Part shown: positions 1 to 44,648 of the stretch, one piece after another | How the letters are laid out: every line of letters begins with the position of its first letter | How positions within the stretch are numbered: position 1 is the stretch's first letter | Assembly (NCBI GenBank): GCA_964549385.1 | Contig: CAZJVI010000002.1 | Coordinates: 1-51,105 of the forward strand | Length of the DNA stretch: 51,105 bases | From: an uncultured Gammaproteobacteria bacterium | GTDB lineage: Bacteria; Patescibacteriota; Microgenomatia; Levybacterales; UBA12049 | Direction of reading: 5' to 3' | The notes under the pieces: generated by a model | What the model was told of the DNA's origin: nothing | Database searches by the model: none | Seen by the model: only the letters and a program-made list of their open reading frames with translations | Program-made: the position numbers and the translations under genes

Positions 1-60
1 TTAGGTTTTAGAAAAATATTTTCTCTTACCTATTACCTAGCACCTAAAACCTAATATCTA
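1..60. repeat. Family A heptad-phased palindromic intergenic element (TAGGTNN / NNACCTA arms), truncated at the window edge
   Basis: The sequence ttaggttttagaaaaatattttctcttacctattacctagcacctaaaaccta is nearly identical to the copies at 2867-2947 and 3848-3926. It ends a few nt before the ATG at 65. Confidence 0.8.
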
Positions 61-64
61 ATTT

Positions 65-778
65 ATGGTAATTGATCCTATTTCACTTATATTTCTTACT
101 GCAGCGGTGACAACACTCGCTATTCTTCTATTTTTTCTTACCAGAGCATACACTCATTCCGTACAACAGCTTCATCAAACAGAGAAAATTAATACTCAAT
201 TGCAAAATCAACTCTCAGAAAAACCTATAAAACTTCTTGAACACGCGCATGAACAAATGCAAGAAATTATTGATCAAGCAAATAGGAAAGCCGCGGAAAT
301 TCTGGCAAGCAGTAAAACATATGAAGATAATTCAAGCAAGGTGCTAAAAGACAAACTTGATGAACTTGAGAAGCAACAGGCAATGGTTTTTGCAAAAGCA
401 TCCGATGACATGAAAATTGCGTATCAAAATCTTATGACGCAAATCCAAGAGCAAGATATCAATACGTTAAAAAATATGACAAAAGATATCGAAACAGATG
501 TCGTCGCCGACTTTAGAGAATTCCGCGACGCACTGGAAAAAGAAACCATCAACTCCGAAAAGGTAGTTAAAGAAAAAATTGATGAAGAATATCTCGCGCT
601 TGAGAAAGATCTGAATGAATACAAGCAAAAGAAATATCAAAAAATTGATGACGATATTTATAAAATTCTTTATCGGGTTTCTGAAATGGTACTTAATGAA
701 GGAATCTCCTATGACAAACAAAAAGCTTTGGTCTTGGATGCACTTGAAACAGCAAAGAAAGAACAAGTGTTTCAATAG
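65..778 (+). CDS. atpF: F-type ATP synthase Fo subunit b-like
   Basis: Single N-terminal TM helix (ISLIFLTAAVTTLAILLFFL) followed by a long charged coiled coil. It lies directly upstream of the delta-alpha-gamma-beta-epsilon genes. Confidence 0.7.
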   Translation: MVIDPISLIFLTAAVTTLAILLFFLTRAYTHSVQQLHQTEKINTQLQNQLSEKPIKLLEHAHEQMQEIIDQANRKAAEILASSKTYEDNSSKVLKDKLDELEKQQAMVFAKASDDMKIAYQNLMTQIQEQDINTLKNMTKDIETDVVADFREFRDALEKETINSEKVVKEKIDEEYLALEKDLNEYKQKKYQKIDDDIYKILYRVSEMVLNEGISYDKQKALVLDALETAKKEQVFQ

Positions 779-789
779 TCCCTAAATAT

Positions 790-1293
790 ATGCAAGATTC
801 TGCCTTTTTTGATAACATAATTGCCAAACTCCGCACCACTGAGGAGTGTACACAAGTAATTGCTTGCCTTGTAGAATGTTCTGTTCCTACGTTCTTCTCT
901 CTGACAAACGCGCAAAAAGAACTCATTTTCAGAAAACTTCCTATTCAAACTATTCCATTTTTTATTGAAACATTTGGCAAAACATCTTTTACGGCTGAAG
1001 AACAAATCGTTATCAAACGTCAAATCAATGTTCTTTTGGATAAATTTCGCACGTGCAAAAGTATTAAATTAATACTAGCATTTCGACCCAATGAGGAAAC
1101 GATTTCTTTTTTCTCAGACTGGATCAAAAAAAATGTCAAAGCAGATCTTCTGATTGATTTACAGTTTGACAAATCAATCGTGGGAGGAGCACAGCTCATC
1201 GCAAATGGCATGTACAAAGATTATTCTGTCAAAAAAAAGCTCGCCGACAGATTCCAAATCCAACGGGAGGAAATTATGGCTCTTTTAAATTAG
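790..1293 (+). CDS. atpH: F-type ATP synthase subunit delta (OSCP)
   Basis: Size and C-terminal pattern (SIVGGAQLIANGMYKDYSVKKKL) are typical of OSCP/delta. It sits between the b and alpha genes. Confidence 0.75.
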   Translation: MQDSAFFDNIIAKLRTTEECTQVIACLVECSVPTFFSLTNAQKELIFRKLPIQTIPFFIETFGKTSFTAEEQIVIKRQINVLLDKFRTCKSIKLILAFRPNEETISFFSDWIKKNVKADLLIDLQFDKSIVGGAQLIANGMYKDYSVKKKLADRFQIQREEIMALLN

Positions 1294-1373
1294 GTGATAG
1301 GTACTAGGTGTCAGGTTCTAGAAAAAATATTTTCTATTACCTATTACCTAGCACCTAATCCCTAATACCTAAC
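1291..1373. repeat. Family A heptad-phased palindromic element
   Basis: taggtgataggtactaggtgtcaggttctagaaaaaatattttctattacctattacctagcacctaatccctaatacctaacc. The first TAG is the atpH stop codon, and the atpA ATG follows at 1376. Confidence 0.85.
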
Positions 1374-1375
1374 CT

Positions 1376-2869
1376 ATGAGGACTTTTCAGCAATATCTTA
1401 ACGCAACAGAAGAAATTGGATTTATCGAAGCATGCAATCAGTCTATAGTGTATGCAAGCGGTCTTCCTAACGCAACACTACAGGAGATTGTCATTTTTGA
1501 AAATGGTGAACTTGGTCTTATCCTCTCTATGAGTCGCGACCAAGTCGAGATACTACTCTTTTCACAAGCTTCTATTAAAGAAGGCCTCCGTGTTACCAGA
1601 ACAGGAGTTAAACAAGAAATACCCGTGGGGTTTGAGCTTCTTGGGAAATCCATTGATCCATTCGGTCAACCCCTTAACGCAAGTCAAACAATTACACCAC
1701 CCAAACTCTCCCGTCCGATTGACATCAGTCCAACGGGAATTAACACAAGAAAACGAATTGAACAACCTTTTGAAACAGGTGTTACCTTGGTTGATATGCT
1801 CATCCCTCTTGGCAAAGGACAACGAGAATTGGTGATCGGAGATAGAAAAACCGGAAAAACAAGTTTTTTATATCAAACTATACTCAAACAGGCAAGTATT
1901 GGAACAATTTGTATCTATGCTGGGATTGGGAAGAAAAAAACTGATATCAAAAAGATTGAAGCATTTTTCCAAGCGGCAGGAATTCAAAATAATACTGTCA
2001 TAATCGCCTCCAGTTCTGAAGATCCAGCAGGAGTTATCTATCTCACACCGTATGCGGCAATGACTCTTGCAGAGTATTTTCGAGATGAAGGGCATGATGT
2101 TCTCATCGTTATGGATGATCTTTTTACTCATGCGAAATTTTATCGAGAAATTATGTTGATCGGCAAACGCTTTCCCGGCAGAAACGCCTACCCTGCTGAC
2201 ATTTTTTACACGCATGCACGGCTGATTGAACGCGCTGGAAATTTTGTCCTCGCAGATGGCAGTGAACACGCAATTACGTGTTTGCCTGTTGTGGAATCCG
2301 TTGAAGGTGATATTGCAGGATTTATTCAAACCAATCTTATGTCAATGACTGATGGACACATTTATTTTGACGTTGATATGTTCGGCAAAGGCAACCGTCC
2401 GGCGATCAATCCATTCGTTTCAGTCAGTCGTGTTGGACGTCAAACACAAACGCCGCTTCGTTTGAGTATTAATCGTGAGTTAATCAGCTTTCTCACACTC
2501 TATAACAAACTTGAAAGTTACAGTCACTTCTCAGCAGAAGCTGGAAATGACATCAAAAGGACACTATCAGTTGCTGAAAGAATTTTTGGATTTTTTAATC
2601 AAGGTGCAAATGAAGTAAAAAATATTGACTTACAGATTATTATTTTCTGCCTCTTGTGGGCAGATTATTGGCAAGATATGATAAAAATGGAAAAAGACAT
2701 CATCGTGATAAATCAAACATACAAGTCAAGTGTTTCAGCACAGGCATTGGTAAAGGAACTAACAACGAGCGTTCAATCACTCAATGAACTGTTACAAGCA
2801 GTAAAAAAACAACAGGATAGAATTCTTAGAACATTCGGCGTTCAAGTGGTGACAGCAACGAATATCTAG
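1376..2869 (+). CDS. atpA: F-type ATP synthase subunit alpha
   Basis: Walker A GDRKTGKTS, conserved alpha core (VYLTPYAAMTLAEYFRDEGHDVLIVMDDL), and operon position. Confidence 0.93.
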   Translation: MRTFQQYLNATEEIGFIEACNQSIVYASGLPNATLQEIVIFENGELGLILSMSRDQVEILLFSQASIKEGLRVTRTGVKQEIPVGFELLGKSIDPFGQPLNASQTITPPKLSRPIDISPTGINTRKRIEQPFETGVTLVDMLIPLGKGQRELVIGDRKTGKTSFLYQTILKQASIGTICIYAGIGKKKTDIKKIEAFFQAAGIQNNTVIIASSSEDPAGVIYLTPYAAMTLAEYFRDEGHDVLIVMDDLFTHAKFYREIMLIGKRFPGRNAYPADIFYTHARLIERAGNFVLADGSEHAITCLPVVESVEGDIAGFIQTNLMSMTDGHIYFDVDMFGKGNRPAINPFVSVSRVGRQTQTPLRLSINRELISFLTLYNKLESYSHFSAEAGNDIKRTLSVAERIFGFFNQGANEVKNIDLQIIIFCLLWADYWQDMIKMEKDIIVINQTYKSSVSAQALVKELTTSVQSLNELLQAVKKQQDRILRTFGVQVVTATNI

Positions 2870-2947
2870 GTAATAGATACTAGGTGTTAGGTTCTAGAAA
2901 AATATTTTCTCTTACCTATTACCTAGCACCTAAAACCTAGTACCTAA
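2867..2947. repeat. Family A heptad-phased palindromic element
   Basis: taggtaatagatactaggtgttaggttctagaaaaatattttctcttacctattacctagcacctaaaacctagtacctaa. The first TAG is the atpA stop codon. Confidence 0.85.
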
Positions 2948-2950
2948 ACT

Positions 2951-3847
2951 ATGAATTACTTAAAAACTATTTTGGTACAAATGGAAGATTTAACAGGCAT
3001 CAAAGATATTTTTGGTGCATCTGAAGAAATCGCAAGTATGAAAATGCGCGGCATCCGCACTAAAGTATTGTTAAGCCGTGATATGAACGCGGAATTAACC
3101 GAGATTTATCGGGAAGTAAAAACGTCGTACAAAAATCAACTCATTCTCTTGACCCAAGAAAAAGGAGGAAAAAAAGTAACTAATTCTGCAAACGCAGAGG
3201 ATATTACGCTCAAGTCAGGAAATGGCAAAGGAGCTTGCGTCTTTCTGTCGGCAAATTCAGGCTTGTTCAGCAACATTCTTGAAAAAACATTTCAAGAATT
3301 CACTGAATATCTTGATAAACATAAAGAAGCAGATCCGATCGTCATTGGAGAATTTGGTAAAACACTTTTTAAGAATCATTATCCTGGCAGAGTTTTTATA
3401 TTTTATTCCCTTGCAGAAGGGAAAGCGACTGAAGACTCGCTAAGAAGAGTCACACAGGATCTTAGTTCTTACTCAAATGTTGTTATCTATTATGCACGTT
3501 TTGAGACAATGGCGCATCAGACGTCAACAATTCTTGATGTTTCAGGAGAAGAAGATAGCACCCCCCAAACTCCCGTCACGATGGCTCATTATCTCTTCGA
3601 GCCTTCACTTGAAAAAATTATTACGTTTTTTGAATCGGAAATTTTTGCCGGTATTATTCAGCAGACCGTCACTGAATCAGAACTTGCTCAATATGCATCG
3701 CGCATCACAACACTTGATATGGCACGGGAAAATATTAACAGACAGCTCAAGATAATTAATCTGCAAAAGCGTTTTGCAATGCACCGTCTTATGAATAAAA
3801 AACAAACAGAAGCACTAACAGGAATATCGTTATGGAAAGTTAGATAA
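2951..3847 (+). CDS. atpG: F-type ATP synthase subunit gamma
   Basis: About 300 aa, located between the alpha and beta genes, with helical N and C termini typical of gamma (N-terminal IKDIFGASEEIASMKMRGIR). Confidence 0.75.
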   Translation: MNYLKTILVQMEDLTGIKDIFGASEEIASMKMRGIRTKVLLSRDMNAELTEIYREVKTSYKNQLILLTQEKGGKKVTNSANAEDITLKSGNGKGACVFLSANSGLFSNILEKTFQEFTEYLDKHKEADPIVIGEFGKTLFKNHYPGRVFIFYSLAEGKATEDSLRRVTQDLSSYSNVVIYYARFETMAHQTSTILDVSGEEDSTPQTPVTMAHYLFEPSLEKIITFFESEIFAGIIQQTVTESELAQYASRITTLDMARENINRQLKIINLQKRFAMHRLMNKKQTEALTGISLWKVR

Positions 3848-3926
3848 GGTGATAGGTACTAGGTGTTAGGTTTTAGAAAAATATTTTCTCTTACCTATTA
3901 CCTAGCACCTAATCCCTAATACCTAA
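3848..3926. repeat. Family A heptad-phased palindromic element
   Basis: ggtgataggtactaggtgttaggttttagaaaaatattttctcttacctattacctagcacctaatccctaatacctaa. It lies between the atpG stop and the atpD ATG (3930). Confidence 0.85.
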
Positions 3927-3929
3927 TCT

Positions 3930-5307
<1,378 letters not shown>

Positions 5308-5311
5308 AAGA

Positions 5312-5401
5312 AGGTAATAGGTACTAGGTTTTAGGTAATAGAAAATAATTAATAAATAACTACTAGCACCTAGCACCTAGCACCTAGCACCTAGCACCTA
5401 A
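5312..5401. repeat. Family A element whose right arm is a perfect tandem (TAGCACC)x5
   Basis: Left arm aggtaataggtactaggttttaggtaatag. Five exact TAGCACC heptamers lie at 5364-5398, then taatct and the ATG at 5405. Confidence 0.9.
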
Positions 5402-5404
5402 TCT

Positions 5405-5707
5405 ATGGCAGATAACCAATCAAAAAATATCAATCAATCAACTAATGGATCAGGAGAAACGATTCATGTAATAATCCGCAACCGGACACAAATACTTTTT
5501 GATGATGAAGTAAAATCTGTCACGTCAAAAAACGACACAGGGATCTTTGATGTTCTACCGGAGCATACAAATTTTATCTCACTTATCACCAGTCCTCTCG
5601 TTCTTGGCAAAGTTGATGGACAAAAACAGGAAATTGTCTTTCAAAATGGCCTTATTAAAGTCAAAGACAATGCAGTTTTCTGCTATGTGGATCTGTTATC
5701 AAAGTAA
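5405..5707 (+). CDS. atpC: F-type ATP synthase subunit epsilon (short form, beta-sandwich domain only)
   Basis: Last gene of the atp cluster. The pattern IHVIIRNRTQILFDDEVKSVTSKNDTGIFDVLPEHTNFISLI matches the epsilon N-terminal domain. Confidence 0.75.
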   Translation: MADNQSKNINQSTNGSGETIHVIIRNRTQILFDDEVKSVTSKNDTGIFDVLPEHTNFISLITSPLVLGKVDGQKQEIVFQNGLIKVKDNAVFCYVDLLSK

Positions 5708-5708
5708 A

Positions 5709-5788
5709 TTAGGTAATAGGTACTAGGGATCAGGTAATAGAAAAATAACTGATAAATAATTGCTAGTACCTAGCACCTATTACCTAGT
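5709..5788. repeat. Family A heptad-phased palindromic element between convergent atpC and ndk
   Basis: ttaggtaataggtactagggatcaggtaatagaaaaataactgataaataattgctagtacctagcacctattacctagtaa. Confidence 0.8.
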
Positions 5789-5796
5789 AACTCTAC

Positions 5797-6276: not shown

Positions 6277-6339
6277 GAATAAAGAGTAATGAATACAGAA
6301 TAATGATCTTTACTCTTTAATCATTATTCTTTAATCTCT
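6277..6339. repeat. Family B heptad-phased palindromic element (GATTAAN / NTTAATC arms)
   Basis: Nine 7-nt units: gaataaa gagtaat gaataca gaataat gatcttt actcttt aatcatt attcttt aatctct. Confidence 0.8.
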
Positions 6340-7612: not shown

Positions 7613-7664
7613 AAGAAATCCATTGTAACACGTCACACGTGGTTTTCCAAATAAGATCTCTTGG

Positions 7665-7734
7665 GTTAAAGAATAATGATTAAAGATTAATGATAACAAA
7701 CTCTTTATTCTGTATTCATTAATCTTTAATCAAG
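7665..7734. repeat. Family B heptad-phased palindromic element
   Basis: Its reverse complement shares an exact 30-mer, gattaaagattaatgaatacagaataaaga, with the copy at 46158-46229. Confidence 0.85.
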
Positions 7735-9810: not shown

Positions 9811-11631
9811 CTACATCTGTTCAGGTGCTTTTATTCCAAGGAGGCCTAAACCATTTTTGAGGATTTCCCCTGTTTTTGCAGTTAAATATAAGCGGAAATT
9901 CTTTATCTCTTCTTCGGATTTGAGAATCGGAAACTTCTGATAAAACAAATTGTATGCTTGGGACACTTCAAAAAGGTAGGTACACAATACATTTGGCGCA
10001 TAGCGTAGTGCCGCGTCTTCAACCACTTCAGGAAATCGTGAAAGCAAACGCAGCACATCCCGCTCTTCAACTTTAAGGGAATGGGGAGCAGGGAATGGAG
10101 AGTAGAGATTATTTTTGTGTTCCCTGTTCCCTAATATCTGTTCCCTAATATCTGTTCCCTTACGCAAAACGCTTTGCGTTCGAGCATAGGCATATTGCAA
10201 ATAGGGTCCAGAGTTGCCATCAAGAGAGACAGAACTCTCAATATCAAATGCCACGTCTTGTGTCGCACCAACTTTAAGAACCGAGTATTTCACAGCGCCA
10301 ATTGCAATTTGTTCAATTGTGCGCTCCCTCTCTTCTGATGAAATTCTCCCTTCCTCTACCACTTGCTCTATCCGCTCTTTTACCTGATCAAGTAACCAAT
10401 CAACAGTTAAGACATCACCTGTTCTTGAGCTCATTTTACGATCTTTTAACTGCACCATTCCCATTGAGAGATGTTCTTGTTTACCGGCAAATCTTTCAGG
10501 ATCGATAAGATCGAGCGCTTTAAAAATAACTTTAAAATAGCCAGCTTGTTCGTTTGCAACGACGTGAATTTTTTTATCAAACTGAAAGGCTTTATACTCC
10601 GTATATGCATTTGCCATTTCCTTACCCTCGTAAGTAGGATATCCTTTTGCAGTAATAAATACTCTCGTATGCAATCCATATTTTTCTCCAGGAAAAATAA
10701 CTGTATCTCCACTCTTTTCAAATACCTTACCGATATTTTCATTTACAATTCTTGGCCCCTCTGCAACCATTTCGCTCTCAAAAAACAGCCTTTTAAATTT
10801 TGTATAAAAACGTTCATAAAATTTATCATAATAATCGAGGCTCCATTGGCGTGTCTCTCTGTAAAGATTCCACACTTTTTCTTGTTCTTCTTTTCTTAAT
10901 GAAGATGTAATTTCTCCACCTGCACATTTTTGGTATAAAAACGCATTTACTTCATCTATCTCTTTTGCCAATTTTTCAGATTCATAAAGCTTTACTCCTT
11001 CTGCATATCCTCTTCCCAAAAAATGGGCCTTATCCTTGTTGTCCCATTTCATTATTTCTTCAAATATTTCATTGAAGCTCTTATTCTTTTCTTTCTCCAT
11101 ATTCCGCATCAACTCCTGAATGCCAAACATAGCTTTTGCCACATGTGGACCAATATCTCCTTGATAATTTGCTCTATAAACATCCGCTCCTACTGCTTCT
11201 AACAACCTTGATAACGATTCTCCTGTAATTAGTGTTCGCATATGGCCAATATGCATCTCTTTATGGGTATTCGGATGGGCAAACTCAACCATTATTTTTT
11301 TGCCACTTATTTCACTCTCATGCTTTTCTAAATGATTTAAACCATCTATTAATGCATCACTTGATACCCAAAAATTAATAAAACCAGGCTTTGCGACATG
11401 GATTTCATTAAATATCCCTATTCCCTGTTCCCTGTTCCCTAATTTCTCAACAATCTCTTCAGCAAGCTCCATCGGGTTCTTCCCTGCTTTTTTCGCAGCG
11501 ACGAGCGCAACATTGGTAGCATAATCTCCATGCGATGCATCCGTTGGATAGTCAACGGAAACATCCTCGAGTGGAATATCCAAATCATTTAGTGTATCTC
11601 TAAGCAAAGTTGTAATTTTCTTTTTCAGCAT
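9811..11631 (-). CDS. argS: Arginyl-tRNA synthetase
   Basis: HIGH motif context HPNTHKEMHIGHMRT, the C-terminal anticodon-binding region, and the typical terminal Met. It contains heptad-repeat segments (see findings). Confidence 0.92.
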   Translation of the reverse strand: MLKKKITTLLRDTLNDLDIPLEDVSVDYPTDASHGDYATNVALVAAKKAGKNPMELAEEIVEKLGNREQGIGIFNEIHVAKPGFINFWVSSDALIDGLNHLEKHESEISGKKIMVEFAHPNTHKEMHIGHMRTLITGESLSRLLEAVGADVYRANYQGDIGPHVAKAMFGIQELMRNMEKEKNKSFNEIFEEIMKWDNKDKAHFLGRGYAEGVKLYESEKLAKEIDEVNAFLYQKCAGGEITSSLRKEEQEKVWNLYRETRQWSLDYYDKFYERFYTKFKRLFFESEMVAEGPRIVNENIGKVFEKSGDTVIFPGEKYGLHTRVFITAKGYPTYEGKEMANAYTEYKAFQFDKKIHVVANEQAGYFKVIFKALDLIDPERFAGKQEHLSMGMVQLKDRKMSSRTGDVLTVDWLLDQVKERIEQVVEEGRISSEERERTIEQIAIGAVKYSVLKVGATQDVAFDIESSVSLDGNSGPYLQYAYARTQSVLRKGTDIREQILGNREHKNNLYSPFPAPHSLKVEERDVLRLLSRFPEVVEDAALRYAPNVLCTYLFEVSQAYNLFYQKFPILKSEEEIKNFRLYLTAKTGEILKNGLGLLGIKAPEQM

Positions 11632-12174: not shown

Positions 12175-12501
12175 ATGGATACTGCCCAGCTCTATCAAAA
12201 ACTTCTTAACGATGCAATTCGTAAACAAGTCATTATTCTTGGACGTCATATTGTGCTGATGAAAGTACGAAATATTTCAGGGGTAACAGTCAGTGATGAT
12301 GGTACTATCCTCGGAATGTCCGGTAAACCCGAAGATATTGTAACTCGTTTTGTTGAAGAGTTTCGAGAACTTTCCTCTCCCCTCGTAAAGAAAACAATGC
12401 AACCGCTATTGAGTGCATTAACTCCAGTAACACAACCGCAACCCATTCCAGAAGTTAAACAAGAACAAAACAACAAACAGGAACTAGTCCCTAGTCCCTA
12501 A
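12175..12501 (+). CDS. Hypothetical small protein between the response regulator and the histidine kinase
   Basis: The ORF is tightly packed between two-component genes and I recognised no motif. The 3' end runs into the heptads tagtccc tagtccc taattcc. Confidence 0.45.
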   Translation: MDTAQLYQKLLNDAIRKQVIILGRHIVLMKVRNISGVTVSDDGTILGMSGKPEDIVTRFVEEFRELSSPLVKKTMQPLLSALTPVTQPQPIPEVKQEQNNKQELVPSP

Positions 12502-12511
12502 TTCCAAATTT

Positions 12512-14236
12512 ATGTTAATTCTTATTTCAGCCATTGCTATTGTAGTAACAATCATTTTTGGCGTTATTGCCATTGTGTATTCTCTGCGCGAAGAAAAAGC
12601 AATTAAGAAACTCGTTGATAATGAACTTCAACAAAAACAAAGACTTTTTGAAATAACCATGATGAAAGAAATCCAGGATAGAATTGGTTATTCTCTCGAA
12701 ATTGGAAAAGTCGTTGATGTAATTATTGAAAGTCTTGATGCGTTAGTAAGCTACACAACAGTTTCATCCTTGGTACTACAGGATAATTTATTGCACTTCA
12801 CAATACACGTAAAAGAAGCAGTCAGCAAACAATATATTGAAACAATCAAGGAATCAATGTTTCAATCTTATACTGCGATGGAAGCAAACGCGATGAAGCT
12901 ACCTGAGGAGGAAAATATCATGGGAGCTGCGCTTGATGATCTCAATCACGCAACACCTTCATCTTTTTTTCATGTGCCGATTATTGTTAATAATCGAGTT
13001 GTGAGTATCCTAACTATTGCATCCACCAAACAAAATAATTTTACTGAAGCTGAAATGACAACGCTGTATAAAATTGCTGCGCAGGCATCAGAAGCACTTT
13101 CCCGACTCGAAAATATCCTTACCATAGAAGAAGGTAAACTGACTGCAATGATCAGTAGTCTTGCTGATGGACTTTTCATGGTCGATGTCAATGGCCAGCT
13201 GACTGTTATCAACGATGCAGCAAAAGATTTCTTAGGAATTCCGAAAGACAATCCTTCAACAATTGATCTTCTTAGCGCTTTGCCCAACAGTTATGATTTC
13301 TCAAATAAAATTGAACGTGCAATCAATCACAAACGAATCATAGAAGAAAAAGAAGTAACGTTTGGTGAGAAAGTTTTCCAAATTTTTATCACCCCTGTCT
13401 TTGATGTCAGTATAACAACGGAGAAAAAAGTTATCGGTGTATCAGTACTGCTGCACGACATCACCCTTGAGAAATCTATTGCAAAGATGAAAGAAGATTT
13501 TACCAATGTTATGGTACACGAACTACGAAGTCCATTGACTGCTATAAAGGCTAGTTCTGAACTTGTTATCAATCCTCCCGGCCCCCTGACTGAAGAAGAA
13601 AAGAATAAAATTCTTACCTTGATTGCCGGACAAGCGAGAAAGATGCTGGATGAAGTTGCACTGATTCTTGATGCAGCAAAATTGGAAGCAGGCCTCTTCA
13701 CCATTCAAAAAATACAAGGAGATCTCAAACAGCTTATTTCAGAACGTGTTCAAATTTTTCAAGCAACAGCTCATGAAAAATTTATCAATCTCATCGTTGA
13801 TGTGGATCCGTCAATCCCGGCTTTCAATTTCGATCCAATTCATATTGGACAAGTGGTCAACAATCTTCTTTCAAATAGTTTGAAATTTACTTCCTCCGGC
13901 GGCACGATAAAAATCAGCGCCAGACCAGCAATCGGAAGCGTAATGGTTTCGGTTTCGGATACTGGTGCTGGGATACCGAAAGAGAAACAGCACTTACTCT
14001 TCACTAAATTCACGCAGCTGAGTGGTGCGGACCATGGTAGTGTTGGAACAGGACTGGGTCTTTATATCGTCAAAGGCGTTGTTGAAGCACACGGTGGGAC
14101 AATAAATCTCGAATCAGAAGAAGGACGTGGAACAACAATTTCCTTCACATTGCCAATTGATAATGCAGCTGCAAAAGCACAAACCATGCAACATCCCGCG
14201 CTCATCTCTTCAGCAAAACCACGGCTGGTAAACTAA
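12512..14236 (+). CDS. Sensor histidine kinase (TM, sensory/PAS-like region, HisKA, HATPase_c)
   Basis: H-box MVHELRSPLTAIKAS, N-box NNLLSNSLKFT, and G-boxes DTGAGIP and GTGLGLYIVKGVVEAHGG. Confidence 0.9.
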   Translation: MLILISAIAIVVTIIFGVIAIVYSLREEKAIKKLVDNELQQKQRLFEITMMKEIQDRIGYSLEIGKVVDVIIESLDALVSYTTVSSLVLQDNLLHFTIHVKEAVSKQYIETIKESMFQSYTAMEANAMKLPEEENIMGAALDDLNHATPSSFFHVPIIVNNRVVSILTIASTKQNNFTEAEMTTLYKIAAQASEALSRLENILTIEEGKLTAMISSLADGLFMVDVNGQLTVINDAAKDFLGIPKDNPSTIDLLSALPNSYDFSNKIERAINHKRIIEEKEVTFGEKVFQIFITPVFDVSITTEKKVIGVSVLLHDITLEKSIAKMKEDFTNVMVHELRSPLTAIKASSELVINPPGPLTEEEKNKILTLIAGQARKMLDEVALILDAAKLEAGLFTIQKIQGDLKQLISERVQIFQATAHEKFINLIVDVDPSIPAFNFDPIHIGQVVNNLLSNSLKFTSSGGTIKISARPAIGSVMVSVSDTGAGIPKEKQHLLFTKFTQLSGADHGSVGTGLGLYIVKGVVEAHGGTINLESEEGRGTTISFTLPIDNAAAKAQTMQHPALISSAKPRLVN

Positions 14237-14281
14237 TTATTTTTCAACTGGATCTGCCAGTTTCCAAAGTTCTTCAAAAAT
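14226..14281. repeat. Direct repeat copy 1, a relic of the 3' end of a trmB-like gene
   Basis: tttttcaactggatctgccagtttccaaagttcttcaaaaat matches 15293-15334 with 4 mismatches in 42 nt. Read on the minus strand it still encodes IFEELWKLADPVEK followed by a stop. Confidence 0.75.
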
Positions 14282-15267: not shown

Positions 15268-15334
15268 TGGTAAATTACCTATTTTCTAAATATTTTTCAA
15301 CCGGAGCTGACAGTTTCCACAGTTCTTCAAAAAT
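15268..15334. repeat. Direct repeat copy 2, overlapping the 3' end of the TrmB-family gene
   Basis: See copy 1. The two copies flank the 14336-15238 gene. Confidence 0.75.
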
Positions 15335-20132: not shown

Positions 20133-23100
20133 TCAATTGACCACAAAATTGAGTATCTTTCCGGGAACGAGGATAACTTTCTTTACGCCATTTTCCAAAA
20201 ACTTTTTCACATGCTCATCTTCTCTTGCTCTCTTCTCAAGCAATTCCTTATTACTTCCATCCGCTACTGACACATCCATTGTTACGCGCAATTTACCATT
20301 CACCTGAACGGCAATTGTCACACTATCTTTCTTCAAATATTTTTCATCATAAATTGGCCACTCACTAGTATGAATAGAATGGAACCCTGTTCCCCGTTCC
20401 CTATTCCCTATTCCCTGATACAACTCCTCCGTCATATGCGGCGCAAATGGTGCCAAAAGTTTTAAGTAAACTTCCACTTCTTCTCTACTCAAGCTTTCCT
20501 GTTTTGCCAAAAAATTATAGTACGTCATAAGCTTTGCAATCGAAGTATTAAACCGCAAATTCTCCATATCCTCAGTAATCCCTTTGATCGTTTCATGCAT
20601 CATCTTCAAACTTTCCCTATTCTCTAGTCCCTGTTCCCCGTTCCCTGCTCCCTGCAACAACTTCCACACTCTCTTCAAAAAGCGGCTCATACCATCAATT
20701 CCACTGTCTCTGAAATCGCCGCCTTGATTAAATGGTCCCAAAAACAAAAGATACGTTCTCAAAGTGTCAGCACCGTATTTGCGGATATAATCATCAGGAT
20801 TGATGACATTGCCTTTACTTTTACTCATCTTTGAACCGTCTTTGATAATCAAACCATGAGCATAGAACCTCGTGAACGGCTCTTCGAAATCAACATATCC
20901 CATGTCCTTCAGTGCCATCATGAGGAATCGTGAGTAAAGCAAATGCAGAACAGAATGCTCAGCTCCACCGATATATGAAGTCACTGGTAACCAAACTCTT
21001 CTCTTTTCAGCACTTTCAATTTCACCCTTTGTAGCGCCTTTAAATTCTTGAGCTTTTTCTTTTGGCATTGGGAATGGAATATGTTTCAAATCCGTTGCCA
21101 AGTACCGTAAGAAATACCATGCGGAATCCAAAAAGGTATCTGAAACATCAGTTTCTCGAATTGCTTTGCCACCACAGTGTGGACATGTCGTCTCATAAAA
21201 TTCTGGATGATTCGCAAGCGGTGCTTTGCCCGTACCAAGCGGCTTGAAATTTTTAATGTATGGCAATAACACTGGCAAATTCTCTTCTGGGTACCAGCCG
21301 AGATTGTGAACCTCAACTTCTGGAAATTCCTCAAGAATTGTTGGGAATTCAAGAATGCCAGCACCAGCATTGAAATGTCCATGCTTTTTGAAAACTTTTA
21401 CTCGCGGGTTCAAAACGGTATATGTCTTTTCAACAGACAACGGAATATATGGATCATCATCTGAGAGATACAAAACTGTCTGGTTCACTGATTTTGCAAC
21501 ATCGTTAAGTTTCGCAGTTGATTTATTGAATGTCTTAATCACCTTTTCAGCATGATAGTATCCAGCTTTTCGCAATACTTCCCAATTTTTCTCGCCTTGT
21601 TCTTTTGCAGTTGGTGCAACAAGAATCAATTTCTCAACCGATAATTTACTTTGTCGGATAAATTCAATAGCAGTTGGCGCACCGAGACTGTGTGCAACAA
21701 TCGATACAGTATCTTTTTTTGTGATGCCGAGTTTTTTTAACGCGCCAGTCCACTCTGCAAGCGTTGGTGTATCTGCATTAGGCAAATCAGGAATGATAAC
21801 ATCATATCCCTTTGTTTCGATGAGCTTTTTAAACCAAGGGAGCCAATTCTCTTCACTGTTGCCTCCTAGTCCATGAAGCAATAGAACCTTAGGTTTTCTC
21901 TTTGCACATTCCGCACAATAAATCATTGGAATTGGCGGCCCCCAATATCTTTGACGTGAAATCAACCAATCTCGCAAATGATAGGTCACTTCCCTTTTAC
22001 CATATCCTTCCTTTTCAATATGATCCATGATCACAACAGTTGCTTTATGAATATCCATACCGTTTAAGAAACCTGAGTTGATCATCTTTCCTTCTTCTTC
22101 CTGTACTTGCTCTATTTTTATAATGGGAGAATCATCGTCATCTTTGCCCACAACAACTCGAATAATTTCTAGACCAAACTTCGTCGCAAACTCAAAGTCT
22201 CTTTTATCATGTCCAGGAACTCCAACCAGTGCACCGGTCCCAAAACCACCAAGAACGAAATCAGAAACCCAAATCGGCATCTGATATCCGGTCAAAGGAT
22301 TCATTGCATATAATCCAGTAAAGACACCTGTCTTTTCTTTCCCTTCTGCTTGTCGTTCTATTTCCGACTTGTTCATCGCTTTATCAACATATTGTTGGAT
22401 TTTCTTCACTAATTGAGCATCAGTTTTGACTACACCTTTTAATATCTTTGAAACGAGTTCATGCTCAGGAGCAAGTGCGATAAATGTTGCACCGAAGTTA
22501 GTGTCAGGTCGTGTTGTAAAAATTGTAACAGTTTCATTACTATCGGCGATTTTATATGTTATGTTAATTCCTTCTTTCTTTCCTATCCAATTTTTCTGTG
22601 CAAGTCGCACCTTTTCACTCCAATTCAAATCTTTAATATTATTGAGCAAAGGTTCAGCGTACTTCGTGATTTTGAAAAACCATTGTTCAAGATCTCTCTT
22701 CTCAACAATACTGCCGCAGCGTTCACACTGCCCATCAATCACTTGTTCATCAGATAAAACGGTCTTACATGATGGGCAAAAATTAACCGGAGAGTTTTTC
22801 TTATAAGCCAAACCTGATTTAAAAAGTTGTACAAAGATCCATTGAGTCCAGCGGTAATATTCAGGATCATAAGTCTCCAATTTATTTTTCCAGGCAAAAG
22901 CATTTCCTGTTTCATGTAATTGTCTATAAAAGTTTTTCTCCGTCCTCTTTGCGTGATCTACAGGATGGTCATTTGTTTTGATTGCATGGTTCTCGGAGTG
23001 AATGCCAAACCCATCAAGACCCATTGGTTGGAAAACCTCATACCCCATCATCCTCTTAAATCGACCAAATGCATCAACTCCTCCTGAAGTGTAACTAAAT

Positions 23101-23348
23101 CCGACATGTAACCCTTCTGCTGATGGATATGGGAACATCATCAAATTATAATAAAGTGTGCGTGACCTTTTGCTCTTCTTTTTAGCCTCGTTTACTGAAG
23201 CCCTTGAAGCTGATGGAGCCTTAGCAGTATCGAAGTCAGGCTGATAGATACCCTCCTTCCCCCATTTAGCTTGCCATTTCGGCTCAATCGTTAAATGGTC
23301 ATAACTTTTTTTCTTAATATTTTTTGTTTTAGCTTTATTTGTGCTCAT
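20133..23348 (-). CDS. leuS: Leucyl-tRNA synthetase with a nested alpha/beta serine-hydrolase domain
   Basis: CP1 editing motif TTRPDTNFGATF, KMSKSKGN, RQRYWGPPIPM and RETDVSDTFLDSAWYFLRY. It is 1071 aa long because of insertions (see findings). Confidence 0.92.
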   Translation of the reverse strand: MSTNKAKTKNIKKKSYDHLTIEPKWQAKWGKEGIYQPDFDTAKAPSASRASVNEAKKKSKRSRTLYYNLMMFPYPSAEGLHVGFSYTSGGVDAFGRFKRMMGYEVFQPMGLDGFGIHSENHAIKTNDHPVDHAKRTEKNFYRQLHETGNAFAWKNKLETYDPEYYRWTQWIFVQLFKSGLAYKKNSPVNFCPSCKTVLSDEQVIDGQCERCGSIVEKRDLEQWFFKITKYAEPLLNNIKDLNWSEKVRLAQKNWIGKKEGINITYKIADSNETVTIFTTRPDTNFGATFIALAPEHELVSKILKGVVKTDAQLVKKIQQYVDKAMNKSEIERQAEGKEKTGVFTGLYAMNPLTGYQMPIWVSDFVLGGFGTGALVGVPGHDKRDFEFATKFGLEIIRVVVGKDDDDSPIIKIEQVQEEEGKMINSGFLNGMDIHKATVVIMDHIEKEGYGKREVTYHLRDWLISRQRYWGPPIPMIYCAECAKRKPKVLLLHGLGGNSEENWLPWFKKLIETKGYDVIIPDLPNADTPTLAEWTGALKKLGITKKDTVSIVAHSLGAPTAIEFIRQSKLSVEKLILVAPTAKEQGEKNWEVLRKAGYYHAEKVIKTFNKSTAKLNDVAKSVNQTVLYLSDDDPYIPLSVEKTYTVLNPRVKVFKKHGHFNAGAGILEFPTILEEFPEVEVHNLGWYPEENLPVLLPYIKNFKPLGTGKAPLANHPEFYETTCPHCGGKAIRETDVSDTFLDSAWYFLRYLATDLKHIPFPMPKEKAQEFKGATKGEIESAEKRRVWLPVTSYIGGAEHSVLHLLYSRFLMMALKDMGYVDFEEPFTRFYAHGLIIKDGSKMSKSKGNVINPDDYIRKYGADTLRTYLLFLGPFNQGGDFRDSGIDGMSRFLKRVWKLLQGAGNGEQGLENRESLKMMHETIKGITEDMENLRFNTSIAKLMTYYNFLAKQESLSREEVEVYLKLLAPFAPHMTEELYQGIGNRERGTGFHSIHTSEWPIYDEKYLKKDSVTIAVQVNGKLRVTMDVSVADGSNKELLEKRAREDEHVKKFLENGVKKVILVPGKILNFVVN

Positions 23349-23704: not shown

Positions 23705-24460
23705 ATGAATACCCTAAGAATTCCAAAAAACAGTTCTTATCAATTAGTACCCCATACAATTATTATTTGTTTATTTGCTTATTTGTTTATTTGTTTATTC
23801 CCAACGCATGCGTTGGGTGATACTCTTTCGAATGGCAGTTATTCTATTAATGTCGGAAATATCGATACCAATCCCCAACCAACACAAAGACCAAAACAAA
23901 CATCTCAAGTTCTTGGAACTTCAGCACCTCAACCGGAATTCACTACCGGACCCAATTATACCGTAAACACTTCCAATGATTCGCTGTCAATAAATACGTC
24001 ACAAAATACCATTGACTATGGCATCCTTTCTTCTACAAATCCTGTTACCAGAATATCCAACATTTCATTTTCGAATTCGCAATTTGGCGCTGAAATACTT
24101 ACCTATGAAAATCGTCCATTGGAAACAATAAAAAATGATATTATTCAAAATACCAGTTGTGATGATGGCGATTGTTCTTCCTTTACAGCTGCTGTCTGGA
24201 CTAACACTTTGACTTATGGATTCGGATATCGTTGCGACAGTCAAGACTCGACACTTTGTGATCCACAATTTGCAAATGCAGATTATTTTAAGCAATATCC
24301 TGAAGATTCACTAGATGAGCTTGCCGAACCATTATTAATCAGTAATCATAGCAGTCATACAAACAAAGCCGTCGTAACATATAAAGTTAACATCCCAGGC
24401 ACACAAAAACCCGGCGCATACTATAATAGTATAACGTATCTAGCAGTGCCGGGATTCTAA
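23705..24460 (+). CDS. Secreted protein with a WxL-like C terminus (tentative)
   Basis: GGAGG precedes the ATG. Signal peptide ...ICLFPTHALG. The C-terminal GAYYNSITYLAVPGF resembles the distal WxL motif region of Firmicutes surface proteins. Confidence 0.4.
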   Translation: MNTLRIPKNSSYQLVPHTIIICLFAYLFICLFPTHALGDTLSNGSYSINVGNIDTNPQPTQRPKQTSQVLGTSAPQPEFTTGPNYTVNTSNDSLSINTSQNTIDYGILSSTNPVTRISNISFSNSQFGAEILTYENRPLETIKNDIIQNTSCDDGDCSSFTAAVWTNTLTYGFGYRCDSQDSTLCDPQFANADYFKQYPEDSLDELAEPLLISNHSSHTNKAVVTYKVNIPGTQKPGAYYNSITYLAVPGF

Positions 24461-25599: not shown

Positions 25600-27025
25600 G
25601 GCTTACAAACAAGATTAGCTTTGAATAAACCTAATTTTCTATTTATAGTTATTACAATAACATTACTAATAAGATATAAACAGGCCTTCTAGCTCAAATA
25701 AAAGGCATCTTTGCTGTTTTAGCCTCAAAAACTAGTGTTTAGATTGTAAAATCAATATTTTTTTCACTTATCACTAGCAAACATAATTTGCTAATATTTT
25801 CCTTCTTTATGCCTACTTTGTTTCAATTCACTAAATAGTTAATTTGCTATAGTTATATCCAGCAAGATATCATAAATACATCAGGTAATATATAAAAATA
25901 TATCATTACGGAAAATAAAATTCATAATCCCTTTTCCTCGTTGCTAAATCAAAATTCCACTTCATTTAAACATGAAACAACCTCTAATTTCTAATTAAGA
26001 ACTATTATGCTTTTTATTAGGATAGCAATTCATTGGCTACGCTATTTCCAAGCAATTAAAAGATTATGATTGCTAAAATTCGTGCAAGTATATCAAACTA
26101 TAGACGAATAAAGTATAATTATCACTTATTAGCTCATTCGGTAATTAAATACAAGATATTTTTATTAACCGAATTAGCTATCGTTTATTTAAACTATAGG
26201 AAAATAGTCCTTTATGAAATAATTTTCTCTTTTTACATTAATTCCTGACAAAAAAACTGTCATCTTATGACTCATATTTGAGGCTAAGAGTTTTAAGTAA
26301 GTAAAAAAGTACTCCTATCTTCAAATTATTTTTCACAAGCTAAAAAATACGACGGTATAGTCTATTTTTTGGATATAGTATGTATTTGTAATACTTCTTA
26401 TATTAAATATAGGTATATCTGCTGCTTCTTGATGCTATTTATTTTTCTGCGAAACAAGCTAACGGCTCACCCATCATCTGTGCTAAAAATCTAAGCTTTA
26501 CACTGTTATATCAATACAAATGAGCTTTTCTATATGCTAGCATAAGAACCTTATCTGTGCCAATTTAGCACATCACTCTATATTACTTATTATAAAGAGA
26601 ATAAATCGCACCTATATGCAAAAAATCTATTACTTTTTACATTGCACAATAAATACCCCATATCTTTTAGACTTTATAAATAAAAAAATTATCTTAATGC
26701 AAAAACTTAATAAAAAAATTATTTAGCCTCAAAAATGTCTTATATAATAGAAAAATATATGAACATTTTTGTTTTCACAACCCTATCTTATGTTTTCATG
26801 AGCTTTTCACAGTGAATAATGAGGAGGAATCATTTTTTTATTATTTCAAATAATATCACACTGTATCAATTCAGTTTTTCCTGGCTTGACAATGTGTATG
26901 CAAGTTTTATATCCTGGAATTAATAAAGATAAACTCTATTGATAATCGGTATAATCAGTATAATCTCGAAGCTATACGAAATTTTCCAAGTGTAAAATTA
27001 ATAGACTTTTCACAGAGGTAAAAAC

Positions 27026-30000: not shown

Positions 30001-31405
30001 CACTGATAGTGGAAATATCATGGCTGCTAGCGAATCGGCAACAGTAAATGATAACACTACCCAAACCATGAATCAACCCATGAATTCAACCAATCTTGCA
30101 GAATTCCTCTCAAATATTGCAGGAACCATTCAATTGGGTGCAGTGCAAGTTCAAACACTAACAACACAGTCGCTTTCCGTCGCGACAGATAATATAACAA
30201 TCGGCGGTGAAACGCTTAAGGATTACATTACGCAGATTGTCGATCAGATAGTAGAACAGCGACTCAACAAACATCTAGCACAGATCCCTCAAAAGCCTCA
30301 GATTCTTAGCCCTGTTGCAAGTAATTCTGCTCAATTAGCAGATCAAAACATATCGCAATCGATAATACCAACGCAAAACGCCAGTCAAAGTGCTGCCGTA
30401 CAAACTGCAAACAATGGAAACGCAAGCCCCGCAGCGACCGTTGTATATAATATATATAATAGTATAGCGACACAAAGCGCAGAGGCAGCCACTATTTCTG
30501 CAACGCCGACCATTAGTCCAATACCAACGGCAGACGATACACAACTTCAGGCAAGTGATTCTGGAAATATCGACTCAGAAAATATTGATACCAATACTTT
30601 TGAGCCTGCCGCGAGTTTAAGTGGCCAATTACAAAATGTCCCAAATCTTCAAGCAAGCTTCGGCACATTCAATCAAGGGCTCGTGGCACTCGGCCCAACG
30701 AGCCTGACAGATGTCGGAGTACAAGGGACTATTTCAGTGAATAATAATTTAAAAATTACGGCTGACGCAATAAACACCATCGGCTCAAATCTCAATATCG
30801 AGCCGCTTCGTCAAGGCAATATTCTTTTCATGGGAGGATTAGTGGCAATTGACACGCAAGGCAACCTTCAGGTCAACGGCAATGCAGTCTTCTCACATAA
30901 CGTAGCTGTCAAAGGTGAGCTTGCCGCAGGCATTATCGCGCCTATTCCGAATAATGATCTTATTATCAACTTGAAAAATAAGGCAGACAAAACAGCTTCT
31001 TCACTTATTATTACCAATGCAACAGGCAGTGGCGTTTTGCAAATTAATCAATCTGGAGATCTGACTTCTTCAGGTGATGCGAAATTTAATTCTGTTGCAA
31101 GCAATGGCTTCTCAATTATCCGTGGTGCACAAGCTGATACTTCGATGACCGAAACTGTGGCTAATGGATCTGCAGGAACAGGAGTCATCAGTGCTTATGA
31201 GACGCAACGAACCATTATCACACAATTTGTAACTGCTCATTCACTTATTTATATTACGCCAACTTCAAATACTGATACTGTCACGCCCTATCTTGCCAGA
31301 CAAACAATTCAAGATCCAAACAATGGATCGCAAGGCTCGTTTACCGTTGAAATACCAACGAGCATAACAAAAGATATTGGATTTAATTGGTGGATAGTAA
31401 ATTAG
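27026..31405 (+). CDS. Giant single-pass membrane protein: two N-terminal integrase-type SAM-like (core-binding) domains, a TM helix and a roughly 1000-aa extracellular fibre/beta-helix-like region
   Basis: Repeated TIKNYLSDVRRFFNWFE...SIKRYLSSLRKF and TIKNYLADLRQFIDWLE...SINRKLSSLRRYVRWL. TM helix FVHYLHIGILIMATVISGATLFITWYG (about 28250-28336). Ser/Thr/Gly/Asn-rich exodomain with ADLAENY...GNVV. No tyrosine-recombinase catalytic domain. Confidence 0.55.
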   Translation: MDIVKEFKNHLLTQKNPPSHLTIKNYLSDVRRFFNWFENTYQTPFNPQWLNKEVICRYQNEIQLTGQSSLSAASSIKRYLSSLRKFTSFLEESGAINTNPFSLLQQVEPQTDPFFFKEFKNYLFTEHASRLTIKNYLADLRQFIDWLEQVTSKGNSEANQPQNSNLLQSIDNYVLEQYKTRLLNEAKLSPISINRKLSSLRRYVRWLNEKGILEDILIQPYSEPENKKVEIKEENPPVQVQMPELPLTVLQGMSEEDEKIKTNYSRFAPFRLMQKTTKAINLGTDLLFFGPIAHVAEAIHYSIWKSGKKTIFAPVKTILKTSSYIPTGVSVKTIIPKASSIMPPRSANLASVLDKIQQYRIASKPETVHNFAKALYAPLKLSTQSMDWKQKVLYHIRYTRPNWYRNYHSFAFVHYLHIGILIMATVISGATLFITWYGTGSSQKQAVLAAQDTAPPRTLSFQGRLLDNTDTPITAETPLRFALYNSPAASGAALLWQETQDIKPDQNGHFTATLGERNRLDQNVFTNNPSLYIGLTVGNNQELTPRQQIPTTEYAANSQTVEGLPPITDNPDVAQNVLLALDSSGNLTIGGNSSHTFQATGGQFSIIGQTLSLTTNSGSNGDIKIAPDGSGIIDLEKPIQNISNYTGPSGIPGALEVDDLLSVFATSSSQSALTVNQNGTGEIISGKSHGTDKFTIDTNGNEFIKGNLILDGDTINTNSTVFDIAGSSVRSLSIGDHASIISLGGSSGITSINNSLSVQGSVTANGLITANAGLTISSGQKLTLPDFSPNGIPFINGNNQMVQDAGSFSWDDANKILNVFGTMCVQDSSTTCNASPGTIYAASYQAAPADLAENYVSSQQLQPGNVVTLEGQGNTEAIRESTTPYQKELIGIISTKPGITLNSDAKADSTHLYVYPVALQGRVPVKISSINGAIKAGDNITSSSIPGVAMDASGSGQIIGKALESYTDPNPNDVGQIMVFVNLSSQTSPTAITDSGNIMAASESATVNDNTTQTMNQPMNSTNLAEFLSNIAGTIQLGAVQVQTLTTQSLSVATDNITIGGETLKDYITQIVDQIVEQRLNKHLAQIPQKPQILSPVASNSAQLADQNISQSIIPTQNASQSAAVQTANNGNASPAATVVYNIYNSIATQSAEAATISATPTISPIPTADDTQLQASDSGNIDSENIDTNTFEPAASLSGQLQNVPNLQASFGTFNQGLVALGPTSLTDVGVQGTISVNNNLKITADAINTIGSNLNIEPLRQGNILFMGGLVAIDTQGNLQVNGNAVFSHNVAVKGELAAGIIAPIPNNDLIINLKNKADKTASSLIITNATGSGVLQINQSGDLTSSGDAKFNSVASNGFSIIRGAQADTSMTETVANGSAGTGVISAYETQRTIITQFVTAHSLIYITPTSNTDTVTPYLARQTIQDPNNGSQGSFTVEIPTSITKDIGFNWWIVN

Positions 31406-31497
31406 ATTTAAGATTAATGATTAATGATTGAAGATATTCTTTACTCTTCAATCCTTAATCTGCCTGCCGGAAAGCAATTCTTTAATCTATTTTTGCT
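31405..31497. repeat. Family B element with an embedded ctgcctgccgg (family D) core
   Basis: gatttaagattaatgattaatgattgaagatattctttactcttcaatccttaatc, then ctgcctgccgg, then aaagcaattctttaatc. Confidence 0.7.
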
Positions 31498-36913: not shown

Positions 36914-37008
36914 AGACTATAACTAAATATTTTTTACTATATAATAAGGAGTCTAAGTATCACTGCTTTCTTTATTCTTTAATCATTTTTCTTAAATCTA
37001 TTCGTGTG

Positions 37009-44422: not shown

Positions 44423-44619
44423 TAATTATCCTCTTCTCCCTCAAGGATATCACAACTATTCAAACTTTAGCTGTTACAAACTTCAACAGAAACGTCTTTT
44501 TTCTTTTCCCAAAGTTATCCACATCAATGTTTAAAACTTTAAATGGATTGGTATATCAGTCTATTTTGTCTATATAAAACTATGAGCTTATGATATTTTT
44601 TGATGAAAAATATTATAGG

Positions 44620-44648
44620 TTGACAGGGATGATTTGTTGTGCTAGTAT
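44620..44648 (+). promoter_or_regulatory. Sigma-70-like promoter candidate
   Basis: TTGACA (44620-44625), a 17-nt spacer, then TAGTAT (44643-44648), 12 nt upstream of the small ORF ATG. Confidence 0.3.

Follow-up and report, generated by a model that had tools for sequence, protein, structure and literature searches.

The ATP synthase (atp) operon of an uncultured bacterium, contained in a 51-kb stretch of DNA (contig CAZJVI010000002.1, positions 1 to 51,105; hereafter the window), carries at most of its gene junctions predicted hairpins whose arms are tandem arrays of 7-nt units, or heptads. These elements are the local representatives of a class of repeats that changes quickly and extends across the genome, and they do not constitute a device peculiar to this operon. 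They are probably heptanucleotide repeats arranged as inverted pairs, similar to the short tandemly repeated repetitive (STRR) sequences and long simple sequence repeats (LSSRs), that spread by slippage and copying and persist as translation-neutral sequences. A preliminary description of this DNA had presented the elements as a system of the atp operon; however, heptad families also occupy unrelated gene junctions, an rRNA spacer and the interior of open reading frames (ORFs), and close relatives overlap their atp genes at the same junctions or carry different families there. The nearest named homologues of the AtpA and arginyl-tRNA synthetase (ArgRS) proteins come from metagenome-assembled genomes labelled Levybacteria/Levyibacteriota or 'Patescibacteria group', and judged by these matches the host is an uncultured, Levybacteria-like bacterium of the candidate phyla radiation (CPR)/Patescibacteria.

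Composition and statistical reality of the elements

The genes atpF-H-A-G-D-C occupy positions 65-5707 on the plus strand. An element of the kind found among them (family A) consists of a 5' arm of four to five TAGGTNN heptads, which is G-rich and stop-bearing, an AT-rich loop, and a 3' arm of four to six NNACCTA heptads, which is C-rich and G-poor. Both arms had been recognized in the preliminary description, and all eight elements to which it assigned coordinates are present at those positions. Subfamily A1 comprises the copies upstream of atpF (1-60, with a left arm that is cut by the window start and is complete in contigs of the same species) and at the atpH-atpA (1291-1373), atpA-atpG (2867-2947) and atpG-atpD (3845-3926) junctions, while subfamily A2 is found at the atpD-atpC junction (5308-5401) and between the convergent atpC and ndk genes (5709-5788). 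A diverged family A element lies 3' of a PIN-TRAM (yacL-like) gene (45251-45330), and another copy lies in the 23S-5S spacer (49706-49773), between the 5S rRNA (49563-49673) and 23S rRNA (49813-51105) genes delimited on the minus strand by Rfam. Elements had been reported in every gap of the atp operon, which is true of most gaps, but the 11-nt atpF-atpH gap (779-789) has none, and the copy at 5709-5788, counted among six intercistronic ones, lies between convergent genes and hence is not intercistronic. Likewise, the central AT palindrome attributed to each copy (tctagaaaaatattttct) is confined to subfamily A1; the two A2 elements carry a different AT-rich loop.

The elements are closely fitted to the gene ends, as had been noted before: the stop codons of atpH (1291-1293) and atpA (2867-2869) are the first TAG of their respective elements, and about 3 nt separate the last ACCTAA from the downstream ATG. 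The reported near-identity of copies also stands, with 93-94% identity among the A1 copies at 1-67, 2887-2953 and 3866-3932 and 88-94% among all four A1 copies, and within the genome it extends to the nominally variable heptad positions and to the loop. Rfam families at gathering score in the window are limited to the rRNAs and two tRNAs, and none matches the elements.

The periodicity far exceeds chance expectation. The sequence ACCTANNACCTA occurs 28 times in the window against 0.02 expected occurrences, and a lag-autocorrelation scan returned 13 period-7 arrays under strict and 24 under relaxed settings, compared with 0.02 and 0.7 in shuffled sequences. Period 7 alone is enriched, since each of the other lags from 3 to 13 gave only 0-5 arrays. 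Tandem Repeats Finder (TRF) reported arrays of period 7 or 14 at all elements; the one at 5363-5400 is a (CTAGCAC)x5.4 array with 100% matches, and thus the perfect (TAGCACC)x5 right arm described earlier. Although the non-coding share of the window is only 16%, it holds 17 of the 24 lag-7 arrays. At least three heptad families (A, B and C) are represented in the window; they occupy numerous gene junctions and the 23S-5S spacer, and also lie in frame within the genes for ArgRS, leucyl-tRNA synthetase (LeuRS) and RadA. The preliminary description had overlooked families B and C as well as the arrays that lie within genes.

Turnover among related species

Comparison of the window with the atp loci of eight relatives, whose AtpA proteins are 96-74% identical to that of the window, revealed a bimodal organization of junctions: genes either overlap through ATGA or are separated by at most 26 nt, or else they flank a heptad hairpin of roughly 75-135 nt. 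A few junction gaps of 35-60 nt hold partial elements, and across the window and the relatives element length ranges from 60 to 135 nt. In the relative L127 (AtpA 92% identical) the operon is devoid of elements and 13.5 kb contain no lag-7 array. In L131 (96%), a family C element is found at the atpH-atpA junction, where the window has family A, the atpA-atpG junction is an overlap, and an element is present at the atpF-atpH junction, where the window has none. L128 (84%) carries family A at four junctions shared with the window, L129 (83%) carries a family designated B' together with a further family D (GTGACGA/TCACTNN), and L130 (74%) has one element of yet another family. Array DNA accounts for 0.5-4.2% of the related loci (0% in L127), and at least six to eight unrelated heptad cores occur in the clade, among them TAGGT, GATTAAA, AGGGAAC, GTGACGA, AGAGTTG and CTAGC. 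A metagenome scan for the 20-mer TACCTATTACCTAGCACCTA retrieved 10 loci, of which only L139 and L140 are clear homologues, both from the atpG-atpD junction in a further relative.

Elements are seamlessly present or absent. The atpA-atpG junction, which holds an A1 element in the window, is an ATGA overlap in five related species, and two different families have filled the empty site (AATAT followed directly by ATGAAT) in three species. With or without an element, neither the C-terminal residue of the upstream protein nor the N-terminal residues of the downstream one differ in any case. This seamless presence/absence among relatives implies that the elements are dispensable for ATP synthase expression. 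Judged from these alignments, elements turn over in less time than proteins take to diverge by a few per cent. Unrelated spacers in related genomes had been put forward beforehand as a sign against the proposed system, and such spacers are found in part, in the form of overlaps and of swapped families.

Variation within the species

Six further assemblies (L121-L126), 99.3-99.8% identical to the window and derived from separate ENA and JGI samples, represent the same species, and 12.9 kb could be compared across the seven assemblies. Two of the length differences fall in arrays: the (TAGCACC) array of the A2 element at the atpD-atpC junction (5363-5376) has five, four or three units, and other strains have one additional CTAGTCC unit at 12483. 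The protein encoded by the upstream ORF (12175-12501) is identical in the presence of this 7-nt insertion, because the next heptad provides a stop codon in the new frame. In the ArgRS gene of L121, the heptad AATATCT is replaced by the neighbouring unit GTTCCCT. Array length thus differs between strains only by multiples of 7 nt, and this, with the unit replacement, indicates that arrays evolve by whole units. The remaining length differences are a 1-nt change in a run of A residues in a loop and an 11-nt deletion in atpD that is confined to the window.

This deletion concerns the gene at 3930-5307, from which 11 nt (AGATTATTGGC) are missing at 4243. It breaks atpD into ORFs at 3930-4274 and 4426-5307, while the six other assemblies retain the 11 nt and encode an intact 462-residue beta subunit; the deletion reflects an assembly error or else marks a pseudogene specific to this strain. 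As a separate observation, clusters of single-nucleotide differences in the ArgRS gene distinguish the window (9975-10200 and 11326-11364) from some strains (L121/L124), with up to nine changes per 40 nt, a pattern that suggests recombination tracts from a diverged lineage.

Heptad arrays beyond the atp operon

Downstream of the atp operon, ndk, an M16 peptidase gene and the ArgRS gene follow on the minus strand, and farther along the window are genes for LeuRS, Rho, RadA, an S1-domain protein, 5S rRNA and the 3' part of 23S rRNA. Family B (GATTAAA.../...TTTAATC) is found at the M16 peptidase-ndk junction (6277-6337), at the start of the M16 peptidase gene (7657-7731), where a mechanically called TTG start falls inside the element, after an ORF of 1459 codons (31403-31460), at the junction of RadA and the PIN-TRAM gene (46158-46220), and at the junction of the S1-domain gene and RadA (47654-47715). 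A single family B-type arm, consisting of direct heptads only, lies at 36968-36999.

Family C arrays, on the minus strand, occur within coding genes and are translated in frame to GNREQG-like peptides. An inverted pair (AGGGAAY/RTTCCCT) lies in frame in the ArgRS gene (10076-10167; the site of the heptad replaced in strain L121), and direct arrays are present elsewhere in the same gene (11415-11447, encoding GNREQGIG) and twice in the LeuRS gene (20385-20419 and 20614-20656). Compared with an 80%-identical homologue, the insert at 10076-10167 adds about 11 residues to a hypervariable linker, and the linkers carrying heptad arrays account for the range of ArgRS lengths across the clade (555-659 residues). 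The RadA gene, also counted among the family C sites, contains partly inverted GAATCAK/TCCCTRR arrays (47100-47173, minus strand), and a (CTAGTCC)n array on the plus strand (12484-12506) includes the stop codon of ORF 12175-12501.

Predicted RNA structure and expression signals

Family A elements are predicted to fold into imperfect hairpins with free energies (dG) of -28 to -34 kcal/mol and z scores of -3.5 to -6.9, the most extreme values being those of the element at the atpH-atpA junction (dG -34.1, z -6.9), and family B hairpins are predicted to be weaker (-15 to -27 kcal/mol). Pairing frequencies over 15 family A elements drawn from four species are 91-98% of heptads for the TAGG core, 72% for position 5 and 41-50% for positions N6/N7, broadly in line with the long hairpins of 5-bp helices and internal loops every 7 nt that had been envisaged. 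The 3' arm is usually longer by at least one heptad, which in the predicted structures leaves 0-21 nt including the ATG unpaired and places the stop codon in the base of the stem.

Signatures specific to RNA were sparse. The sense strand was the more stable in 12 of 31 comparisons with the antisense strand, with a mean difference of +1.6 kcal/mol and hence no sense advantage, and G-U pairs were not enriched in it (58 vs 75). An RNAalifold analysis of 13 family A copies gave no covariation (one of 17 pairs with a double change; covariation term +0.63), because the paired core never varies. Promoter-like and terminator-like sites across the window occur at chance level, and the one terminator-like site that touches an element is on the minus strand. 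An intrinsic terminator with a GC-rich stem and U-tract was ruled out by the chance-level sites and by the copy inside the 23S-5S transcript, which implies that the element is transcribed through. The statement that the elements leave no room for a Shine-Dalgarno (SD) sequence is true, but it does not set them apart: SD-like sequences, scored against a canonical anti-SD that may not be the host's, precede only 6-8 of the 41 window genes, and so the missing SD is a genome-wide trait.

Relation to known repeat systems

The STRR repeats of cyanobacteria, reportedly described by Mazel in 1990, were an apt analogy in the preliminary description, since here too 7-nt tandem units are over-represented, mostly intergenic and dispersed, and vary in unit steps. 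The likeness extends to the LSSRs, with which the elements share arrays of a conserved core with variable positions and the occasional arrangement as inverted pairs able to form stem-loops. As cited in two later papers, Mrazek (2007) found heptanucleotides to be the commonest long simple sequence repeats in prokaryotes, with polymerase slippage as the proposed cause (PMC4679880, PMC4692102). Inverted heptamer pairs were noted in Xanthomonas (GGGAATC repeats) and Nostoc (GGGGAYT repeats), and family C (GGGAAYN) resembles these units (PMC4692102). However, none of the STRR1-3 units (CCCCAGT, TTGGTCA, CAACAGT), nor TAACTGA, GGGAATC or GGGGATT, occurs in tandem in the window; the absence of tandem STRR1-3 units, together with the CPR host, assigns the elements to the general heptanucleotide class only and not to the named STRR families. 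They further differ from STRR/LSSR repeats in that the inverted-pair hairpin is the rule, spans exactly the interval from stop to start codon and replaces overlapping junctions, and in that several families coexist in a CPR host, with arrays translated inside essential genes.

A second parallel is provided by the TAACTGA repeats of marine Beggiatoaceae, some cyanobacteria and Bacteroidetes, which are G-poor heptamer arrays that abut start codons in an SD-poor genome (PMC4679880). Like the present elements, these are found right before starts in genomes where SD sequences are rare, in ribosomal and other essential operons, and patchily among close relatives, but they are direct repeats of a single heptamer, with one indirect repeat reported, in contrast to the complementary inverted pairs and several families described here (PMC4679880).

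The analogy that had been drawn to repetitive extragenic palindromes (REPs) and bacterial interspersed mosaic elements (BIMEs) breaks down at a defining trait. REP, BIME and REPIN sequences are likewise short extragenic hairpin repeats at gene junctions, cotranscribed and near-identical within a genome (PMC3116915), and in both cases two inverted units form one long hairpin. REP units, however, are imperfect palindromes of 20-40 nt tied to REP-associated tyrosine transposases (RAYTs), whereas the arms here are direct 7-nt arrays, some of them inside ORFs, and no RAYT (IS200/IS605-like) gene was found among 40 ORFs of the window. With respect to miniature inverted-repeat transposable elements (MITEs) of the Correia or RUP type, the arms would act as inverted repeats and the length is 60-135 nt, but no target-site duplication is discernible. 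Rickettsia palindromic elements offer a further precedent for palindromic repeats in small genomes that lie between genes and also in frame in conserved protein genes, as here; they differ in their length of 100-150 nt, fixed sequence, absence of heptad periodicity and unrelated lineage. The literature searched contained no description of such elements in CPR. The kind is thus known, and what is new is the inverted-pair rule, the stop-to-start span, the replacement of overlaps, the coexistence of families, the translated arrays and the clear polarity.

Weighing the explanations

If the elements are STRR/LSSR-like inverted heptanucleotide repeats, as we consider probable, they would be DNA-level repeats that grow by replication slippage and are copied between junctions by gene conversion or some mobilizing activity, and selection would keep them only where, and in forms in which, they are harmless to translation. 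An ORF entering the element would encounter stop codons in all three frames, the sequence immediately ahead of the next ATG would be G-poor and largely unpaired, and the stem would keep stop and start codons in proximity. At the mRNA level, the elements would be read-through stem-loops rather than terminators, which would replace the direct stop/start overlap and may modulate coupling or stability without being needed for ATP synthase expression.

Two sets of observations weigh against this explanation. One is conservation: between the window and L128, family A elements retain 81-88% identity even though the four-fold degenerate sites of atpA are saturated at 40% identity, and subfamily A2 is found at the atpD-atpC junction in both. 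Conservation of this degree, as seen in the alignments, would not arise from pure neutral slippage and suggests that the sequence is constrained, that a trans-acting factor recognizes it, or that elements were exchanged recently. The other is polarity. The cores of the two arms are complementary in each of about eight heptad families, and a palindrome could be C-first just as well; of 36 elements representing at least eight families, 35 have a G-rich 5' half and a C-rich 3' half (binomial p ~1e-9 per element, 0.008 per family). Because stop codons contain no C, a G-first arrangement is stop-first from either strand and leaves a G-poor leader before the next ATG. A cross-phylum set, assembled by scanning for (ACCTANN)x3-ACCTA, comprised at least 120 loci (L001-L120) from cyanobacteria, Bacteroidota, CPR and others. 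Among the matches listed, arrays that precede start codons have the ACCTA orientation in 25 cases and TAGGT in six (p = 0.0009), while arrays that follow stop codons show TAGGT in 41 cases and the opposite in 14 (p = 0.0004), a contrast that is partly definitional since the array itself can supply the stop. Such polarity relative to translation suggests that the elements act at the level of RNA or translation, or at the least that selection filters them strongly. As a side observation, the heptads GCACCTA and TTACCTA recur, among the matches listed, in CPR, cyanobacteria, Burkholderiales and Chromatiales.

The main rival, which has a modest chance of being correct, is that the elements are non-autonomous mobile elements of a REPIN- or MITE-like kind, with a transposase encoded elsewhere in the genome that recognizes the hairpin and inserts or excises it seamlessly at junctions, and with the heptad periodicity arising from later slippage. 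Mobility would account for the identity of within-genome copies even at loop and spacer positions, for the occurrence of families A and B in common in species with saturated synonymous sites, for seamless presence/absence with intact protein ends and the filling of the empty atpA-atpG site in three species by two families, and for L127, whose 13.5 kb without lag-7 arrays are as expected upon loss of a trans-acting factor; REPINs supply the precedent (PMC3116915). However, Pfam identified no transposase or RAYT among the 40 ORFs of the 51-kb window, filled and empty sites reveal no discernible target-site duplication, neither arm is palindromic by itself, elements vary continuously in length and in the composition of their arms, and single-arm and in-ORF arrays also occur. 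Moreover, gene conversion between copies 1-1.5 kb apart could give equal homogeneity. There is next to no probability that low-complexity repeats produced the elements as an artefact of assembly or sequencing: the missing 11 nt of atpD, present in six other assemblies, do indicate that the window assembly is not flawless, but at least six independent ENA/JGI assemblies carry identical elements that differ in heptad copy number alone, and homologous elements occur in several related species. An artefact, which the preliminary description had itself raised, is thereby refuted.

Other readings assign the elements a function in the mRNA or in protein binding. One possibility, which we regard as unlikely, is that inverted heptad arrays evolved throughout the lineage to take the place of overlapping stop/start junctions and of SD-led initiation: the stem would bring the upstream stop and the downstream AUG within a few nucleotides, and either a terminating ribosome would melt the basal helix and reinitiate across the hairpin, or a double-strand-specific RNase would cut the stem and leave near-leaderless mRNAs. 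Were this true, the cross-phylum polarity rule, with TAG-bearing G-rich arrays after stop codons and C-rich, G-poor arrays before start codons, would be a general, undescribed translation signal in SD-poor bacteria. It is quite unlikely that the elements are adaptive intercistronic RNA devices, stem-loops that would protect or process mRNA segments, may couple translation, and would set subunit stoichiometry where SD sequences are rarely used, with a ribosome that terminates at the stem-base stop melting the basal helix and freeing the region before the next AUG. The mRNA structure of the Escherichia coli atp operon, which controls atpH-atpA coupling, speaks for such devices, as do the predicted stop codon in the stem base and AUG 0-21 nt from the 3' end of the stem, the G-poor leader, the polarity in the clade and (among the matches listed) across phyla, the conservation of family A beyond neutral expectation, the rarity of SD-like sequences in the window, and the proposal that TAACTGA repeats abutting start codons act in translation (PMC4679880). 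Yet the elements are absent from a 92%-identical relative and from single junctions in many others, where genes overlap instead, and one junction can be occupied interchangeably by unrelated families; the sense RNA has no stability advantage over the antisense and no enrichment of G-U pairs, family A lacks covariation, and the same elements also occur between the rRNA genes, where convergent genes end, and within ORFs. A very improbable alternative is that the heptads provide phased sites at which an oligomeric or multi-domain protein binds RNA or DNA; HutP-like (UAG-N4-UAG), TRAP-like, S1 and Csp proteins are candidates. HutP sites have the spacing UAG-N4-UAG-N4-UAG, and the left arms of family A read the same; an S1-domain protein is encoded at 47721-48812, and S1, Csp and CsrA were proposed as binders of TAACTGA repeats (PMC4679880). 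Against this stand the dispensability of the arrays, the absence of any HutP or TRAP family match among the window ORFs, and the at least six to eight unrelated cores in the clade, since with several unrelated heptad families a single sequence-specific binding protein is unlikely. A HutP-type antiterminator site in particular was rejected, as the pattern fits only the left arms of family A while families B-E have other cores.

Other features of the window

The window has a G+C content of 38%. A thioredoxin-reductase-like gene directly precedes the 23S-5S unit with no 16S gene between them (L135, 5584-10000; window 49563-51105), and the rRNA genes of the species appear to be unlinked. The ArgRS encoded on the L127 contig is only 57% identical to that of the window, though AtpA of the same contig is 92% identical. 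LeuRS (20133-23348, minus strand; 1071 residues) has an unusual architecture in which a Ser_hydrolase/alpha-beta-hydrolase domain (residues 488-673, Pfam E = 1e-18) is inserted after the editing domain. The only strong array of a period other than 7 in the window is a period-8 tandem, (TTATTTGT)x4.6 with 93% matches, at 23763-23799 inside ORF 23705-24460.

Two regions are poor in coding sequence. One, at 25600-27025, comprises 1.4 kb of 27% G+C with no ORF longer than 60 codons and no Rfam match, and sits upstream of the 1459-codon ORF, whose only Pfam matches are N-terminal phage-integrase SAM-like domains; the other, 910 nt at 44423-45332 with no ORF of 70 codons or more, lies between an ORF of 503 residues and unknown function and the family A element at 45251-45330. 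A 49-nt direct repeat of 90% identity is present just past the stop codon of a histidine-kinase gene (14233-14281) and inside the 3' end of a TrmB-like gene on the minus strand (15286-15334), and may represent a gene-fragment duplication.

Implications

Rather than a new system of atp regulation, the elements offer a good comparative handle on an old open question, the origin and function of heptanucleotide repeats having been unexplained since 1990. The clade constitutes an unusually clean comparative system, in which the same essential operon is organized with overlaps or with interchangeable hairpin families in species a few per cent apart, and unit-step variation within the species adds to its value. 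Slippage versus mobilization, neutrality versus translational function, and the meaning of the polarity that places G-rich arrays first and C-rich arrays before start codons are thereby directly addressable. For the annotation of CPR genomes, the arrays matter in a practical sense, as they supply stop codons, shift predicted starts, and add translated inserts to aminoacyl-tRNA synthetases and RadA.

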